Shown piece after piece: positions 26,004 to 63,700 of a DNA stretch of 64,000 bases. Origin of the DNA: Kiritimatiellia bacterium (GTDB taxonomy: Bacteria; Verrucomicrobiota; Kiritimatiellia; JAAZAB01). The notes beneath the pieces are model-generated. The model made no database searches. It was not told the origin of the DNA and was given only the letters and a program-made list of their open reading frames with translations. Position numbers and translations under genes: made by a program. The DNA lies in the NCBI GenBank assembly GCA_040767085.1, contig JAXGPF010000005.1, positions 8,343 through 72,342 of the forward strand, written 5' to 3'. How positions within the stretch are numbered: position 1 is the first letter of the stretch; every line of letters begins with the position of its first letter.

Positions 26004-26089
26004 GGCGGAACATGCCCAAAAACCGGGAGAAAAAAAGGGCCGCGCCCGTCGCCGGGGCGGCCCTTGTCCGATAAGGTTCGCTGCAATTT

Positions 26090-26374
26090 TCAACCAAGCA
26101 CTGCATCCTTGGCCGCTTTGGCAATCCGGAATTTCAGCACGCGTTTAGCCTTGATCTTGATGGTCTCGCCCGTCGCCGGGTTGCGGCCCATGCGCGCCTT
26201 ACGGTTGACGATCACCAGCTTGCCCAAGCCGGGAATGGTAAAACCGTTCTTGGCTTCCTTGCACGCCATGGTCACCAGCGTCTCCAGCATCATTGCCGCC
26301 TGCTTCTTGGTGATCTCCGTCTTCTCCGCCAATTCCGCGACGATCTGACTTTTGGTTTTCGCTTTGCCTGCCAT
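26090..26374 (-). CDS. hup: HU family DNA-binding protein
   Basis: ORF track; 94 aa; GFTIPGLGKL...RNPATGE. Confidence 0.9.
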   Translation of the reverse strand: MAGKAKTKSQIVAELAEKTEITKKQAAMMLETLVTMACKEAKNGFTIPGLGKLVIVNRKARMGRNPATGETIKIKAKRVLKFRIAKAAKDAVLG

Positions 26375-27622: not shown

Positions 27623-27641
27623 ACACATCCCCGAAAAACCT
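27623..27641. repeat. 19-bp direct repeat ACACATCCCCGAAAAACCT, left flank of IS (target-site duplication)
   Basis: Identical copy at 29024..29042 read directly. Confidence 0.6.
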
Positions 27642-27727
27642 GTCGTAAACAAATGACTTGGCCGCATAATTAACAAATGATTTGTCCGCTTAAAGCTGTC
27701 AGGATGGTGCATTCAAAGGGGGGTTAT

Positions 27728-28912
27728 ATGGATGAATATCCGAAGGCAGCACTGGAGCGGGCAATGAAGGTACAGGAAGTGATCTTGCGTGCGATTGAAG
27801 GGCGGTTAATGTGGTGGGAGGCGGCGGAGATACTAGGTGTGAGCTACCGGACCATGCGGCGCTGGAAAGGGCGCTACGAGCGGTATGGTTACGACGGGCT
27901 GCTGGATCGTCGGCGGAAGATACCGGGGCCGCGGCGCGTGCCCCTTGCGACGGTGAAGCAGGTGCTGAGGTTGTACCGAGAAGAATACATGGATTTCAAT
28001 GTGAGGCATTTTCACGAGAAGCTGCAGGCGGAGCATGGGATCGAGCTCAGTTATCAGTGGGTCAAGAGCGCCTTGCAGACGGCCGGGTTGGTGGCGAAGG
28101 CCCGGAAACGAGGGCCGCATCGGCAGCAGCGGGAACGGCGACCAATGGCGGGGATGATGTTGATGGTGGATGGCAGCACCCATGCCTGGTTGCCCCTGCT
28201 GGCGGGCCAGAAGCAGGATCTGATCCTGGTGATGGACGATGCCACCAGCGAAGTCTACACGGCCTATCTTGTGCCCCAGGAAGGGACATTAACGGTGATG
28301 AAGGGGTTGAAAGAAGTCATTATTAAACATGGGGTTTTCTGCAGTCTGTACACGGATCGTGGCAGTCATTTCTTTTATACGCCCAAAGAAGGCGGGGCGG
28401 TGGACCGGCGTCAATTGACGCAAATTGGACGGGCGTTGCAACAGTTGGGGATCGAACATATTCCGAGCTATAGCCCCCAGGGACGTGGGCGAATAGAGCG
28501 GATGTTTAAGACCTGGCAAGGGCGCCTGCCGCAGGAATTAAGGCAGGCGGGAATCCGGACGATGGCCGAGGCCAACGTCTATATTCAACAACAGTTTCTG
28601 CCTTCCTTCAATCGCAACATGAAGGTGAAGGCGCGGGAAACAGGAACGTGTTTCGTGCCTTGCGGTGAGCAGGATTTGGACAGCATTTTCTGTGTGCAGC
28701 ATGCGCGAGAGGTTCAAAATGACAATACCGTGGCTGTCGGGAGTCGCCGCTTGCAGATTGGACCATCAAAATGGCGTTTCAGCTTCGCCAAGTGCCGGGT
28801 TAAAGTCTGCGAGCACCTCGATGGCACGGTGTCCATCCGTTATGGCCCGCATGTGGTTGGCCGCTACCAAGGACCGTTGAACATTTCGGCGTCGCTGGAG
28901 GACGTCGCATAA
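27728..28912 (+). CDS. DDE transposase (HTH + integrase-core rve domain)
   Basis: ORF track 27677..28912; ATG 27728 (MDEYPKA...) preferred because 27677 lies in the terminal repeat and 27728 follows AAAGGGGGG; DDE-region motifs MVDGSTH, VMDDATS, YTDRGSHF. Confidence 0.8.
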   Translation: MDEYPKAALERAMKVQEVILRAIEGRLMWWEAAEILGVSYRTMRRWKGRYERYGYDGLLDRRRKIPGPRRVPLATVKQVLRLYREEYMDFNVRHFHEKLQAEHGIELSYQWVKSALQTAGLVAKARKRGPHRQQRERRPMAGMMLMVDGSTHAWLPLLAGQKQDLILVMDDATSEVYTAYLVPQEGTLTVMKGLKEVIIKHGVFCSLYTDRGSHFFYTPKEGGAVDRRQLTQIGRALQQLGIEHIPSYSPQGRGRIERMFKTWQGRLPQELRQAGIRTMAEANVYIQQQFLPSFNRNMKVKARETGTCFVPCGEQDLDSIFCVQHAREVQNDNTVAVGSRRLQIGPSKWRFSFAKCRVKVCEHLDGTVSIRYGPHVVGRYQGPLNISASLEDVA

Positions 28913-28915
28913 ACT

Positions 28916-28941
28916 TTTTCCTCCCCCGCGGGGGAGGAAAA
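28916..28941. terminator. GC-rich hairpin just after transposase stop, inside the IS
   Basis: TTTTCCTCCCCC-GCG-GGGGAGGAAAA inverted repeat read directly; no clean U-tract. Confidence 0.35.
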
Positions 28942-29023
28942 TCCTCACCCCAGGAGCAACAACACACAATAACAAATCGGACAGATCACTTGTTACAAAA
29001 AGCGGACACTTGACTTGTTACGA

Positions 29024-29042
29024 ACACATCCCCGAAAAACCT
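29024..29042. repeat. 19-bp direct repeat ACACATCCCCGAAAAACCT, right flank of IS
   Basis: Identical to 27623..27641. Confidence 0.6.
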
Positions 29043-56961: not shown

Positions 56962-59900
56962 TTACTTGCGGCGCCGCCGGCTGGCAACGTCTGGTACAAT
57001 GACAAAATGTGCGCTGGCATGAGGCGCCAGTTCCAGGCTGAGCCGCAGATATGCGGCGTTTTTTTCCACTAAATGCCAGGGGCAATCGCACCGGATGCGC
57101 GCCGGGGCCAGCCGGGGCAGGCGGATGGTCAGCACCGGCCGGATGGTTTGCGCCGGCGCGGGGTGGTTGTCTTCCATGACGACGATATTCGCCTGTCCGC
57201 GGCGGTCGTAAAAGGCGATCAACTTGCCCGCGGTGGATTCGACTGCCGGCCGGCCCGCCCAGCGCAGCGCCAGGGCCATGGCCCGGTTCATCAACACGCT
57301 CCGGCTTTCCTTGCCGTAGGACACCAGGTTTTTCAAATCCAGCCGCTGAACCATGGTCGGAGGTATGGTGAAAAAAACCGTCCGGCCCCATCGGGTTTGC
57401 CGGCATACCAGGGCGGCCGCCAGTTTCCGGCCGCGTGCATCCAGTCCCGCGATCAGCGTTGCGGCCGATGCGGCATCGTAGGCCGCCCGGCAATGCGGCG
57501 TAGCGCATTCCTCCGCCGCGGCCGGCAAGTCCCGCCAAATGCCGGCGCGGCCGGCGGCCGCCTGCAGAGCGCGCAGTGGGAGCGGCCGCTCCAGGCGGCG
57601 GATGCCGAACAAGTCGGCCAGGCTGCCGGCTTCCTCGAACCCGACCAGGGCCACACCCCGCGCATGCAGGCGGCGGATCGCCTGCTGGATTGCCATGGAA
57701 ACGCCGGTCAGCGGCGGCAGCACCAGGGAATGCGCGTCTGCCGGATCGAGTTGCTCGATCGCCGCCAAGTCCGCCAGGAACCCGGCCTGCTGGCCATCCA
57801 AACGCGCCTGCTCATAGGCGAAGGCCGGCGCTTCCTCGGCCGTATTGACGACATCGTGGTAGTCCAGGCGCAACTCGAAATCAGGATTGGTGCGGGTGGG
57901 CGTAAATGTATCCGGATGCGCCAGGCAGGCGCCGCGGCTGACGGCAAAGGCGGTTGTCCGCAACGGCCGCGCCGGCGGATGCTTGCGGATCGTTCCCCAG
58001 GCGCGGAGCATTTCGCGGTAATGCGCCTGGTTCCAGGCCATGGCCTGAAACCCGTTGTCCCGCCAAAAATGCCAGCCGGCGGCGTCGAACCAGGCGGCCG
58101 CAAAGGCATACTCGAAAAAAGTTTTCCGGAAGAACGGCGGCGGGGTATGCGAGTGGCCGTAAGGCGGCCTGCCGTACACCGGGCGCAAATCGCTGGCGCA
58201 GCCGTTAATGCCATAGACTTCGGGGTAGATTTTCAGGCCCGGCCCTTCCATTTTCAGGGCGGCAAGCATGAAGACCGCGCGTTGCAGCGGATAGCCGCAC
58301 ATGTAGGGATAATCCTCCAGCAGCATCGGGCCGTCATAAAACCGCTCCAGGCGGCGGCGCAAGTCGCGGCCGGTGTACCGCGCGAAATACGCGCCCTTGT
58401 AAGCGGAACCATAAGGCGGGTAAATGCCGTAAGTCACCCATTCCGCGCCGGCATTGACCGCGCGCAAGCGCCGGTGCATGGCCGGCAAATGTTCCTGCAG
58501 CATGTACTGGTTGAAAAATTCCACCCACTCCTTCCAATGCCGGGTCAGCAGTTCGCAATACATTTCAAAGCTCAATTTCCGGCTGCTCGCGATCGCCGCC
58601 GCGTCCAGGCTGGCGGCTGCCTGGTTCCGGCTCCGGCGGTCCGCCGGCGCCGGGCCGGCCGGCGGATGCCGCCGGAGGAATTTCAGCAATGCGTCCAGCA
58701 CCACCTGGTCGTAACCGCCGTGCCACAGATCGTGCCGCTGATTCCAGTAAATCCGGTCGGCATGCGGCAACACGTCCGCATTTTTTTCCGGGTCTTTCTC
58801 CGGCGTCATGCGGCGGTGCAGTTCCACTACCCATTTGCGCCGGTAAAGATGGACTACATTCCAGATCCGATCGCGCCGCGCCGGCAAAATCTGATGGCAG
58901 CAATTGGCCAGGTAATGCGCGGCGTCCACCCCGCGTCCCACCCAGGGATCGAAGGCGCCGGTTTCCGTGGCGTAGTCCGGGATATTCGGAATCAGGTCCG
59001 GCAGCCCGGAAGCCTGCGGAGGCGACGGCGCCGCCGGGTCGGCGGACATCACTTCAAACGCGCTGCGGGTTGCAAGGATCCGTTCCTCGCCGCGCCGTAA
59101 TTCCGCGCGGAGATGATATACCCCGATCCGCAGTCCCGTAAAAATCACCGGCGCGGAGATGAAGGTGGCGGCGCCCAGGCGCGCGGCCAGTTGCGCCGAT
59201 AAATCGTCGCCCGCCGCGGTCAGTTTCACCGGCCGGGCCCGCTGTTTGGGCGCTTGATAAGCATCCTCCAAAGTCACCTGGAGCGACAAGTCCGCGGCGC
59301 GCCAATCCGGTCGGCGATGGCGCACCCGGCAGGTCAGCCGTACGCGCTCGGAAGTCAGGAAAAAGTGGTTGTTTTGCGCGAAGGCCAGCGCCGCCGCGCG
59401 GCGTTTTTCGGTCCGGGGTATCATGGCGGCGATTTGCTTGTCGGGCGGCGATAGAATTTCCAGCACGGCCGCGCCGGGATCGAGCGCCGGACCGTTGTAA
59501 ACCACTTTCCCGGTTTGCGGACACACCAGCATTTCGGCGGGGCCGCCCGCCAGCGCCAGGCGGTCTTCCGCCTCGTAATATTCATAGCCCAGCGCCAGCC
59601 AGGTCCGGTCCGGCAACCCCCGGAACAGCAACTCCCGGCACGCCGGCCCTTCCGCGTCGCAGGGCCAATCGCCGGACGAGCGCGGATTCCAATGTTCCTT
59701 CAAACCCAGGGATCCGGTATGCAGGTAATATTTTTGCGGCGCGTCTTCGCCGCTTTCCACCCGCACGTAAGGCCGCGTCAAGCGCGAATTCCCGCGCAAC
59801 CCGCGGAAGTCGCACACCGACGGCGGACGCTGAGCAGGACCGCCTTCCAGCGCGGCCGCCAGCTTTGTCCGCCGCGGACTGCGCCAGCCGGCGATGCGGA

Positions 59901-60603
59901 ACCGCCAGGGATCGGTCATCCCGTTCCAATCGGCGGGCAATTCGAAGCAGCGTTCGGGCCAGAGCCGCCGCCATGTTTCGCGTTCGCGCGATTGAATCCG
60001 CACCTGCCGGATATCCAGCACATAAAACTGAGCTGCATAAGCGCGGTCCAGGCCGATCAAGCCCGGCCCATCGCATGTGCGCGCCGGGTCGGCAAACCGG
60101 GCCGCGCAAATATCCTGGTGGTAAAACGCAAACGAGCAGGCGCCGATTTTCAGTCGCAGCCGGCAATCCGACGTCGGCGGCGTCGCGGGCGCGCCGGACA
60201 GCCGCGGCGCGCGCGCCAGGGTGTCAATATTCCCGTCGCGATAGATGCCAAAGACGGTTTCCAGCCCCTGGTCGCCGCCCCAGGCGTGTTGAATGCAATA
60301 GCCTGCGCGCCGCCGGGGATCATACCGGAAATAAATGCGCAAGGCGCACCGCGCGCTGTAAACGTCGCTGCGCGCCGTGAACGTCACCTGGGCCGTCCGC
60401 GCCGGGGGGGCCGGCGGGAAATGCAGGTTGCCGGCGAACAGGAAGCGCAGGGCGCCGCCGCGTATTTCCGCCAGGTCATGGAACAGGTCGGCATGCCGTT
60501 CCACCGCCCATCCCTGCGGCGCCGTCCCATCCAACTGGGACTGGAAATCATCCTGGTAAATCAAGTTGTCAGACACCTTTGATTTGCAGAATGGTGTTTG
60601 CAT
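56962..60603 (-). CDS. large hypothetical protein, 1213 aa, no signal peptide
   Basis: ORF track; ATG at 60603; no family recognised. Confidence 0.5.
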   Translation of the reverse strand: MQTPFCKSKVSDNLIYQDDFQSQLDGTAPQGWAVERHADLFHDLAEIRGGALRFLFAGNLHFPPAPPARTAQVTFTARSDVYSARCALRIYFRYDPRRRAGYCIQHAWGGDQGLETVFGIYRDGNIDTLARAPRLSGAPATPPTSDCRLRLKIGACSFAFYHQDICAARFADPARTCDGPGLIGLDRAYAAQFYVLDIRQVRIQSRERETWRRLWPERCFELPADWNGMTDPWRFRIAGWRSPRRTKLAAALEGGPAQRPPSVCDFRGLRGNSRLTRPYVRVESGEDAPQKYYLHTGSLGLKEHWNPRSSGDWPCDAEGPACRELLFRGLPDRTWLALGYEYYEAEDRLALAGGPAEMLVCPQTGKVVYNGPALDPGAAVLEILSPPDKQIAAMIPRTEKRRAAALAFAQNNHFFLTSERVRLTCRVRHRRPDWRAADLSLQVTLEDAYQAPKQRARPVKLTAAGDDLSAQLAARLGAATFISAPVIFTGLRIGVYHLRAELRRGEERILATRSAFEVMSADPAAPSPPQASGLPDLIPNIPDYATETGAFDPWVGRGVDAAHYLANCCHQILPARRDRIWNVVHLYRRKWVVELHRRMTPEKDPEKNADVLPHADRIYWNQRHDLWHGGYDQVVLDALLKFLRRHPPAGPAPADRRSRNQAAASLDAAAIASSRKLSFEMYCELLTRHWKEWVEFFNQYMLQEHLPAMHRRLRAVNAGAEWVTYGIYPPYGSAYKGAYFARYTGRDLRRRLERFYDGPMLLEDYPYMCGYPLQRAVFMLAALKMEGPGLKIYPEVYGINGCASDLRPVYGRPPYGHSHTPPPFFRKTFFEYAFAAAWFDAAGWHFWRDNGFQAMAWNQAHYREMLRAWGTIRKHPPARPLRTTAFAVSRGACLAHPDTFTPTRTNPDFELRLDYHDVVNTAEEAPAFAYEQARLDGQQAGFLADLAAIEQLDPADAHSLVLPPLTGVSMAIQQAIRRLHARGVALVGFEEAGSLADLFGIRRLERPLPLRALQAAAGRAGIWRDLPAAAEECATPHCRAAYDAASAATLIAGLDARGRKLAAALVCRQTRWGRTVFFTIPPTMVQRLDLKNLVSYGKESRSVLMNRAMALALRWAGRPAVESTAGKLIAFYDRRGQANIVVMEDNHPAPAQTIRPVLTIRLPRLAPARIRCDCPWHLVEKNAAYLRLSLELAPHASAHFVIVPDVASRRRRK

Positions 60604-60644
60604 GAGTAATTCTTTGGAGCCTTAAACTACGGCAACTGCCAAAA

Positions 60645-60668
60645 AAGACAAGCAAATTTGCTTGTCTT
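60645..60668 (-). promoter_or_regulatory. perfect 24-bp palindrome with U-tract in the 5' leader of the 1213-aa gene (attenuator or operator candidate)
   Basis: AAGACAAGCAAA/TTTGCTTGTCTT read directly; on minus strand followed by T-tract, ending about 36 nt upstream of ATG 60603. Confidence 0.4.
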
Positions 60669-60776
60669 CCTTAACGGCGCGCAGTTAATATGCAGCTTAT
60701 AAATTTTTTCGAGATCGGATCCGGCCGTCAGATTGACGCCGGCGCCGGCTCCCGGATCGTTTTTTTTACATAATAT

Positions 60777-63700
60777 ATGTCAAACGTAAAAGACCGACTG
60801 CCCGGCTGGATGTTGATATCGTTCGCGGCCGCCATGCTGGCCCTGTCTGCCGCCACGGGTTGGTACTACCAGCATGGACGGCGGATGATCGAAGCAAGAG
60901 CCGCGGACCATTTAACCGCCATCGGCCGTTTGAAAACCGGCCAGATCGCCGCGTGGCGCAGAGAGCGGCTGGCCGACGCCGCCGTCCTGGCCCAGGGCGT
61001 CGCCTTTTCCGCTAAAGTCGCCCGGTTTCTGGCGGGTCAGGACAGGGAAGACACGCAAGAATTGCGGGCGTGGTTGCGCCGTTACCAGGAGCATTATCAT
61101 TATGCGGATATCCTGCTGATTGACCGCCAGGGCTCCTGCCGGCTCAACCTCTCGGGCAAGCAGATGGCGGCGGAAAAATTCCAGCCGGCGCTGGCGCCCG
61201 CCTTTGAAATGCGGCGGCCTTATTTGACCGACCTGCACTCCGATCAGGATATTCCCGCCGCGCATGTCGGCGCAATCGCGCCCATCTTCGCCGGGAACGA
61301 TCCGGCGACCGAACCCCTGGGCGCGATCATCCTGATTACCTACGCCGACCAGTACCTCTTTCCGCTGTTGCAAACCTGGCCCGCGCCCAGTTAAACCGCG
61401 GAAACCATCCTTTCCCGCCGGGATGGCGCGGACATTTTATTGATAACACCACTGCGGCATCAGCCGGATGCCGACCAGCCCCGGCGTATGCCCTTAACCC
61501 AGACGAATGTGCCGGCCGTTCAGGCGGCCCTGGGACACGCGGGGGTCGCGGCGGGCGTGGATTACCGCGGCGCCAGGGTTCTGGCCTACGCCGCTGCCAT
61601 CGCCAACACACCCTGGTTCCTGGTGGCCAAGCAGGACGAGGCGGAAATCTTCGCCGATTGGCGGTATCGCAGCCGGATGATCCTGGGCGCCTTCCTGGCC
61701 TGGGCCGCCGGCATCATCGGCATCGGGGCCGCTGCCTGGCAGCGCAACAACAAGGCGCATTACTGCGCCTTGTATCAAGCCGAAGCCCGGCAGCGCGCCG
61801 CGGCGGAAGAGGAAGCGATGATCCTGTGCTCCATCGGCGACGCCGTCATTGCCGCCGACTCGGCCGGCCGGGTGAAAGTAATGAACGGCGTGGCCGAGGA
61901 ACTTACCGGCTGGACCGAGCAAGAAGCCATCGGCAAACCGCTGGCCGAGGTCTTCAACATCATCAACGAAGAAACCCGGCAGCCGGCGGAAAATCCGGTG
62001 GCGAAAGTCCTGCGGGAAGGCGTCGTGGGCGGCCTCGCCAACCACACCCTGCTGATCTCCCGGGACGGCCGCGAGCGGCCCATCGCCGATTCCGCCGCGC
62101 CGATTTACGACGAGGCCGGCGGCATCGTCGGGGTGGTTTTGATCTTCCGCGACAAGACCGCCGAATGGAACTACCGGACGCTCTTCGAAAAAATGCTTGA
62201 CGGCTTCGCCGTGCACGAATTGATCTGCGACGAGCAGGGCCGGCCGGCGGACTACCGCTTCCTGGAAGTCAATCCCGCCGCCGAAAGCATGCTGGGCAAG
62301 CCCGCCGGGGAGATCATCGGCAAGACGATCAGCCAGTTGCTGCCCAAAACCGAGCGTAACTGGATTGAAATCTACGGCCGCGTGGTGCAAACCGGCCGTC
62401 CCGCCCGCTTTGCGGCTTACGCCCAGGCGTTGAACAAGCATTTCGAGGTATCGGCCTTCCGCACGCATGCCCATCAATTCGCCGCTATCTTCCAGGATGT
62501 CACCGCGCGCCACCAGACCGAGCAGGCGCTGCAGGAGAGCGAACGCCGGCACCGTTCGCTCACCGACGATGTGCTGGACAACACGGAAGTCGGCATAATC
62601 ATCCTGGACGCCCAGTTCAACGTGGTTTTGATCAACCATGCCATCGAGCGTTTCTTCGGATTGCAGCGGGAACAGGCTGTTGGCCAAAACAAGCGGCGCC
62701 TGATACAGGAGCAGATTGCCGGCATCTTCGAGGATCCGGTGGAATTCCAAGCCCGGCTCTTCGCCACGTATGCCAACAACTCCTATGTCGAAAAATTTGA
62801 ATGCCGGGTGATGCCCGACGGGCCGCGGGAAGGGCGCTGGCTCCAGCATTGGAGCAAGCCGATCGGCGCCGGCCTGTATGCCGGCGGCCGGATCGAGTAT
62901 TATTACGACATCACCGAACTCAAACAGGCGGAAGAAGAGCAGCGGCGGCTGTTCTCGGCGATCGAACAAAGCGGCGATATTGTCATCATCACCGATCCGG
63001 AAGCGAATATCCAGTACGTCAACCGGACCTTCGAGCAAATCACCGGCTACATCCGCGCGGAAGTCCTGGGCAAGAATCCGCGCCTCCTGAAAAGCGGCAA
63101 ACAGGGCGAAGGCTTTTACCGCGAGATGTGGGATCACCTGGCGGAAGGCAAGGTTTTTCGCGCGTGCATGATTAACAAGTGCAAAGACGGCTCGTTATAC
63201 ACTGAGGACGCCACCATCTCGCCGGTCTTCGACAAAGCCGGCAAAATCGTCAATTACGTTGGCGTCAAGCGCGATATGACCGAGCGCCTGTCCATGGAAG
63301 CCCAACTGCAGCAGGCGCAGAAAATGGAACTGGTCGGCCGGCTGGCGGGCGGCGTGGCTCACGATTTCAATAACATGCTCAGCGCCATCCTGGGCAATGC
63401 GGAATTAGTATTGGAGCAAACGCCGGCGGAATCTCCGACTTACCCGGAAATCCAGGAAATCATCGCCGCCGCCAAGCGTTCCGCGGGCATCACGCAGCAG
63501 TTGCTGGCGTTTGCCCGCAGGCAAATCATTTCTCCCAAAATGCTGGATTTGAATGATAGCATATCCAGCATGCTCAAGATGCTGCAACGCCTGATCGGGG
63601 AGAATATTGACCTGGCCTGGCTGCCTTCCAAAACCGCCTGCATCGTGAACATAGATCCTTCGCAACTGAGCCAGGTGCTGGTCAACCTTTGCGTCAATGC

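Follow-up and report, generated by a model that had tools for sequence, protein, structure and literature searches.

A perfect 24-bp palindrome lies in the 173-bp spacer (60604-60776) that parts a minus-strand 1213-aa ORF from a PAS histidine kinase gene diverging from it on the plus strand, and we propose that the palindrome is a dyad operator for a dimeric regulator common to two divergent sigma-70-type promoters. Judging from conservation and from promoter-like hexamers, we give this reading slightly more than even credence. The window, by which we mean the whole stretch of 64,000 nucleotides that was analysed, has a GC content of 61.8%; among the genomes of the collection, Kiritimatiellia/Verrucomicrobiota MAGs are nearest to it. 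Three related loci were drawn from the collection, and the spacers of the window, L001, and L002 were aligned. In L001, the 1213-aa neighbor has 87% amino acid identity, the divergent kinase is retained, and the element is present; in L002 (83% amino acid identity), the element is likewise present, and the contig ends 170 nt upstream. The features of the locus are as follows.

56962..60603, minus strand: 1213-aa ORF of an orphan family, ATG at 60603->60601
60601..60615, minus strand: start-codon block (AAAGAATTACTCATG / AAAGRATTACYCATG), AU-rich, without a Shine-Dalgarno sequence, kept across the alignment
60622..60666, minus strand: conserved block GACAAGCAAATTTGCTTGTYTTTTTYGGCNGYTGYCGTAGTTTAA, nearly all columns invariant in the window, L001, and L002
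60624..60629, minus strand: -10-like TAGTTT of the predicted 1213-aa promoter, identical in the three loci, predicted start at ~60617
60646->60641, minus strand: T6 run behind the palindrome, extended to T8 and T7 in L001 and L002, respectively
60645..60668, both strands: perfect 24-bp palindrome AAGACAAGCAAATTTGCTTGTCTT, the proposed dyad operator
60646..60651, minus strand: -35-like TTGTCT of the predicted 1213-aa promoter, in an outer arm of the palindrome, TTGTTT in L001 and L002
60648-60665: 18-bp core of the palindrome, ACAAGCAAATTTGCTTGT, invariant in L001 and L002
60662..60667, plus strand: -35-like TTGTCT of the predicted kinase promoter, in an outer arm of the palindrome, TTGTCA in L001 and L002
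60671..60688: second palindrome, TTAACGGCGCGCAGTTAA, within the spacer of the predicted kinase promoter, not conserved in L001
60686..60691, plus strand: -10-like TAATAT of the predicted kinase promoter, TAAAAT in L001, predicted start at ~60698
60708..60758, plus strand: GC-rich fold, predicted within the putative 5' leader of the kinase
60760..60767, plus strand: T8 run, absent in L001
60777..64000, plus strand: histidine kinase with four PAS-domain matches, ATG at 60777, running off the window

The arms of the palindrome (AAGACAAGCAAA/TTTGCTTGTCTT) are 12 nt each, 100% complementary, and joined without a spacer, as the first-pass annotation of this DNA had described. The same annotation had seen a minus-strand U-tract ending about 36 nt before the ATG of the 1213-aa gene; the T run is indeed there, at a measured distance of 37 nt. 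Folded as minus-strand RNA, the palindrome forms a 10-bp stem with a 4-nt loop (-12.7 kcal/mol), followed by the U-tract, and two Ts of the T6 run lie within the palindrome itself, so that the fold can be counted as a 10-bp stem with U4 or as an 8-bp stem with U6. A stable stem-loop and then a U-rich tract is the shape of a terminator, but this stem is weaker and more AT-rich than the true terminators of the window (-18.6 and -25.8 kcal/mol), and the built-in terminator scan (simple stems, loops of 3 to 8 nt) listed neither of the two spacer structures. The stronger of these true terminators follows the gene of an HU-type DNA-binding protein (94 aa, 26090-26374, minus strand; gene and terminator region together, 26030-26374) and is canonical, with a GC-rich stem of -25.8 kcal/mol and a T7, from which it follows that the organism uses Rho-independent termination.

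Within the window, the 18-bp core is unique even when 3 mismatches are allowed, and no second copy of the dyad with up to 5 mismatches was found in the 64-kb window or in loci L001 to L008; over the same range, the dyad did not recur in a manner suggestive of a regulon. A metagenome scan returned 41 exact matches of the 18-mer, all from low-GC contigs that are unrelated and lack the flanking block. Several of these matches, with A and T runs at their flanks, resemble ordinary terminators, and the scan yielded no further orthologues or regulon members. A full-text search that combined GCAAATTTGC with "operator" retrieved DNA-structure papers only.

The longest palindrome of the window lies elsewhere. 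An insertion sequence (~27625-29041) with an IS481-like transposase gene (27677-28912) ends in terminal inverted repeats (GTAAACAAATGACTTGGCCGC ... GCGGACACTTGACTTGTTAC) and is flanked on both sides by an identical 16-nt direct repeat (ACATCCCCGAAAAACC); just past the transposase stop lies a 26-bp perfect palindrome, TTTTCCTCCCCCGCGGGGGAGGAAAA (28916-28941).

The comparison with orthologous regions that the first-pass annotation had recommended showed the palindrome to be conserved as a sequence in both L001 and L002. The conserved block extends over the palindrome and T run and includes the putative promoter for the 1213-aa gene; its consensus, read from 60666 to 60622, is GACAAGCAAATTTGCTTGT-Y-TTTTT-Y-GGC-N-G-Y-TG-Y-CGTAGTTTAA. 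Across the three loci, hardly a base changes in the 18-bp core and in the next ~27 nt toward the 1213-aa gene, and this constancy includes the bases that would form the loop, the central AAATTT; the kinase-side half of the spacer is only ~40 to 50% identical. In L001 and L002, the 24-bp version does not hold at its outer pairs, which are broken or turned into G-T, and none of the 12 predicted pairs has undergone a compensatory double change (RNAalifold, three loci). As far as the alignment can tell, selection is visible on the sequence of the palindrome, with no positive evidence for selection on pairing, and since only three related sequences carry the element, conservation has limited power here. 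Just past the T run, a 4-bp hairpin, UGGC-AGUU-GCCG (60629-60640, minus strand), was also noted; two substitutions in its stem in L001 and L002 keep wobble pairing and the other two changes fall in the loop, the changes being few in all.

The start-codon block is retained in L002 despite a 91-nt GC-rich insertion upstream of it (positions 61-151 of that locus), which has inverted repeats of its own, sits between TAGTTTAA and the start-codon block, and may be a small repeat element. Under the operator model, such an insertion would be tolerated because the stretch that received it would be 5' UTR, downstream of the promoter. The Rfam 15 models, scanned over 59500-62000 with E values up to 10, gave only noise, with best matches far below the gathering scores: nothing was found at E < 0.03, and the one hit with E < 1, to a eukaryotic IRES model, is meaningless.

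Two pairs of hexamers are the sole promoter-like elements of the spacer that are conserved in both sequence and spacing, as judged from a relaxed scan combined with the alignment. In the direction of the kinase, TTGTCT-N18-TAATAT matches the consensus at 8 of 12 positions in the window and its counterpart in L001, TTGTCA-N18-TAAAAT, at 10 of 12; the hexamers and their 18-nt spacing are kept while the sequence between them is identical at only 7 of 18 positions between the window and L001, a pattern that is, as read from this alignment, a classic promoter footprint. Toward the 1213-aa gene, TTGTYT-N16-TAGTTT is found in all three loci, and the window sequence agrees with the consensus at 7 of 12 positions. 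Starts were placed 7 nt past each -10; both the promoter positions and the starts are predictions from sequence, and the stricter built-in promoter scan (threshold of 9/12) reported no promoter in the spacer. Canonical promoters occur elsewhere in the window: TTGACA-N17-TATAAA before the gene at 431-907, TTGACA-N18-TATTAT before 50776, and TTGACA-N17-TATGGT before 56219.

The conserved AT-rich hexamer above the palindrome suits a -10 in the kinase orientation only, which implies that no conserved promoter transcribes the palindrome toward the 1213-aa gene. A candidate in that direction does exist in the window, where TTGACA (60783->60778) overlaps the kinase start codon and forms TTGACA-N16-AACGAT (9/12); its counterpart in L001, TTGGCA-N17-CATCAT, also scores 9/12 and points to the 1213-aa gene. 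Other readings of the spacer were tried and rejected. A sigma-54 promoter (TGGCAC-N5-TTGC) does not fit, as the two elements are adjacent in TGGCAGTTGCC, without the 5-nt gap; the conserved spacer has the wrong spacings for an ECF or a MerR-type reading; and a 27-codon upstream ORF (60690-60773) was set aside, its L001 counterpart having 20 codons with another sequence and another end and its ATG overlapping the predicted -10.

According to the operator model, two sigma-70-type promoters would fire outwards from the compact spacer, with starts at ~60698 (plus strand) and ~60617 (minus strand), and both -35 hexamers would be formed by the outer arms of the palindrome. The center of the dyad (60656/60657) would then stand at about -41.5 from the predicted start of the kinase transcript and at about -39.5 from that of the 1213-aa gene. 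Since it would lie upstream of both predicted starts, the palindrome would be an untranscribed DNA element between the two transcripts, and the T run would be the upstream part of a promoter spacer rather than a U-tract. A single putative dimer bound at the palindrome would control both genes together, either as a repressor that blocks both -35 regions or as an activator of the class II type; the existence of this regulator and its repressing or activating role are surmised from the layout of the site. Two observations bear directly on the model: the dyad symmetry is kept as sequence, with no difference between the window, L001, and L002 in the 18-bp core, and the arms coincide with the -35 hexamers, a coincidence that is as good as the promoter predictions on which it rests. 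The first-pass annotation had offered attenuation or antitermination, a dimeric operator, and small divergent RNAs as explanations, and the dimeric operator is the one that holds up for the palindrome, given its conservation as sequence, the lack of compensatory changes, and the overlap with the -35 elements, whereas conserved attenuation does not.

Several points argue against the operator model. The hexamers are weak in the window (7/12 and 8/12), no candidate regulator gene adjoins the site in the window, L001, or L002, and the search for a second dyad in the window and L001 to L008 was negative. Moreover, the T run and the wobble-kept 4-bp hairpin would fit an RNA model and are not needed by a promoter model, and in a genome that uses intrinsic terminators, a transcribed hairpin followed by a U run would be expected to read as a terminator.

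The strongest alternative, although we think it unlikely, is that two promoters simply stand back to back without a dedicated regulator, the symmetry being a by-product of two outward-facing TTGTCT -35 elements and the shared AAATTT stretch serving both promoters as an UP-like element. The arrangement of the arms would be explained equally well, as both are -35-like hexamers at the proper distance from conserved -10-like hexamers, and the lack of a nearby regulator gene and of another copy of the site (window, L001 to L008) is what one would expect. However, the symmetry runs on through GCAAA/TTTGC, which is more than the -35 elements require, and this extension is invariant in the three loci, whereas it is the -35 hexamers that are less well kept and break the symmetry (in L001 and L002, TTGTCA versus TTGTTT). 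In addition, a perfect palindrome with arms of at least 12 nt is rare by chance, occurring in 2 of 200 block-wise shuffles of the window.

Attenuation, as suggested by the first-pass annotation, is to our mind distinctly unlikely. It would have the 1213-aa gene transcribed from an upstream promoter, for example the TTGACA at 60783->60778, and most transcripts ended by the hairpin and its U run unless a factor or an alternative fold lifts termination, with the hairpin and U8 of the kinase leader acting likewise on the other strand. Much of the shape of the spacer speaks for such a mechanism: the hairpin and a T run are kept in the three loci (T6, T8, and T7), a C-to-T change at pair 10 leaves a G-U pair, candidate promoters with 9/12 matches point this way in the window and in L001, the spacer folds better on either strand than shuffled sequences do (z scores of -3.2 and -4.4), the same 18-mer is a terminator-shaped stem in unrelated low-GC contigs, and intrinsic terminators are in use in this genome. 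Against it, the stretch of ~100 nt that would act as a sensing leader shows little conservation when the window is set beside L001, and neither a conserved antiterminator pairing nor covariation nor an Rfam match was found. The stem is weak and AT-rich, at -12.7 kcal/mol compared with -18 to -26 kcal/mol for true terminators, and conservation runs ~25 nt beyond the U run to include the -10-like TAGTTT, for which a terminator has no need. The U8 on the kinase side is missing from L001. The proposed attenuation of the 1213-aa gene is therefore left without a conserved upstream promoter, a conserved alternative structure, or an Rfam match, and the folding of the leaders that had been recommended in search of antiterminators disclosed no conserved alternative, with 0 of 12 pairs covarying.

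A long shot, in our estimation, is that the conserved block as a whole (palindrome hairpin, U run, 4-bp GC hairpin, and UAGUUUAA) is transcribed and constitutes a new, lineage-restricted cis-regulatory leader RNA, accompanied by an independent attenuator of the kinase. Were this true, an attenuator or a protein-binding element would sit on the mRNA of an orphan 1200-aa protein in a handful of Kiritimatiellia/Verrucomicrobiota genomes. Finally, one small RNA gene in the spacer, or a pair of them, is very improbable; the transcripts, ~70 to 110 nt long, would start in the center and run outwards to terminators on the minus strand (60641) and the plus strand (60767). The terminator-shaped elements do face outwards from an AT-rich center (TTATAAAT, 60697-60704), and the folding z scores are below those of shuffles, but L001 has kept neither the center nor the structure on the plus strand, and there is no Rfam match. 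Moreover, a plus-strand RNA ending 9 nt short of the conserved start codon would leave the kinase promoterless.

The second structure of the spacer, on the kinase side, calls for a separate reading. Any plausible promoter of the kinase lies upstream of the T8 run, so the hairpin and the U8 would be part of a ~79-nt 5' leader, and on the strength of these positions, we consider that they are probably transcribed within it. The first-pass annotation had described a hairpin at about 60717..60759; a structure is indeed predicted there, though not as a simple stem-loop, since the fold of lowest free energy, a long and imperfect hairpin (60708-60756, -23.7 kcal/mol), ends 3 nt before the U run, and a Y-shaped alternative (60718-60758, -19.3 kcal/mol) ends 1 nt before it. 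The palindrome reported inside this hairpin is GCCGGCGCCGGC, at 60738-60749. The T8 at 60760..60767 is also present as described, with a gap to the kinase ATG of 9 nt instead of 10.

In L001, another GC-rich hairpin (GCCGGCTGC...GCAGCCGGC) occupies this place and has no U-tract. Conserved attenuation of the kinase is therefore unsupported, because neither the U-tract nor the hairpin sequence is kept in L001, and the corresponding claim of a conserved attenuator cannot be upheld; by this comparison, the kinase-side hairpin is lineage-specific and not a conserved switch or attenuator. The hairpin and the U8 may nonetheless lower or stabilize the kinase mRNA, or the U-rich stretch may help an initiation of translation that does without a Shine-Dalgarno sequence. 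The leader also contains a direct repeat with an 18-nt period (AGATCGGATCCGGC / AGATTGACGCCGGC, within 60712-60758), of which L001 has one copy, and three GATC sites within 46 nt (60712-60758), none of which is conserved in L001.

The kinase gene itself has an in-frame TAA at 61392-61394 (AGT TAA ACC). At this place, the orthologue in L001, whose product is of the hybrid type and has no DNA-binding domain, reads AGC GCA ACC with an alanine codon, a difference of three adjacent bases. The TAA is not an assembly error, since L050 and L051, two independent Logan assemblies from the species of the window, both have this stop. The kinase may thus be a pseudogene or decaying, or it may be split into a 205-aa N-terminal piece and a remainder. 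A search with its N terminus returned fragments or distant proteins only, apart from these two assemblies as the best matches; because they are of the same species as the window, they add no phylogenetic depth.

On the other side of the spacer, the 1213-aa protein belongs to a family that forms nine 90% clusters among 5.8 billion proteins. No sequence match was found in Pfam, NCBIfam, or the PDB, exact-sequence look-ups of the 1213-aa protein and of P0001 returned no record, and there is no obvious signal peptide. An AlphaFold2 model of an orthologue, built from a 9-sequence alignment, has a mean pLDDT of 46 and is unusable. Distant homologues with 45 to 72% identity (L003 to L008 and L052) have unrelated upstream regions and so provide no footprint of the site. 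Their neighbors comprise a LacI-like gene, a divergent AraC-family gene, and GH42, DUF4838, and CBM9 genes. Judging from these neighborhoods, the family is usually found in sugar- or glycan-utilization settings under local transcription factors, which suggests that the 1213-aa protein is an uncharacterized glycan-related enzyme. In L003 (5770-5935), where a LacI-family gene lies upstream of the 72%-identical orthologue, the spacer carries two related AT-rich dyads, GCTTTCAAAAG-TCA-GCTTTTGAAAGC and TTTCAAAACG-TAA-TTTTTGAAA, as well as the short tandem repeats CAGTAGT and CTGAATT. These dyads are a different operator set in the same gene family. The LacI and AraC neighbors, together with the dyads of L003, suggest by analogy that the family is typically under the control of a local repressor or activator, and this favors the operator.

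If the operator model is correct, it would provide a first concrete promoter/operator layout for an uncultured lineage of Kiritimatiellia and would tie an orphan family of 1200-aa proteins to co-regulation with a neighboring PAS sensor kinase. The architecture is of a textbook kind in a poorly studied lineage and opens no long-standing question. The locus is also a cautionary case, as an AT-rich palindrome and a T run in a high-GC genome mimic a terminator while conservation points to a DNA site.

In having a stem-loop with a T/U run behind it, the spacer resembles Rho-independent terminators and 5'-leader attenuators, and its kinase-side structure is probably transcribed in a leader. Unlike terminators and attenuators, the stem of the palindrome is AT-rich and weak and has a predicted position upstream of the two starts, and no antiterminator, covariation, or leader peptide is conserved between the loci, nor is the U-tract of the kinase. 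Another parallel is found in the operator-overlapping divergent promoters that are governed by one repressor, such as E. coli bioA/bioBFCD, with the bioO palindrome and BirA, and tetA/tetR of Tn10, with tetO. Like bioO and tetO, the palindrome would be an operator that lies over core elements of two divergent promoters and coordinates their control. In those systems, the regulator is known and is often encoded at the locus, whereas here the adjoining sensor kinase has no DNA-binding domain, and there is only one dyad.

The consensus of CRP is TGTGA-N6-TCACA and that of FNR is TTGAT-N4-ATCAA, and ACAAGCAAATTTGCTTGT matches neither of these. A single CRP dimer is documented to act on two divergent promoters in E. 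coli (model study by El-Robh and Busby 2002, as cited in PMC3105977), and araBAD-araC and xylAB-xylFGHR are examples of divergent promoters with CRP bound at one target between them. Our case departs from that of CRP in that the starts are predicted from sequence and the regulator, with its activating or repressing role, is putative. As in the single-site control by CRP, however, one dyad occupies a short divergent spacer at ~40 bp from each predicted start, over weak -35 elements.
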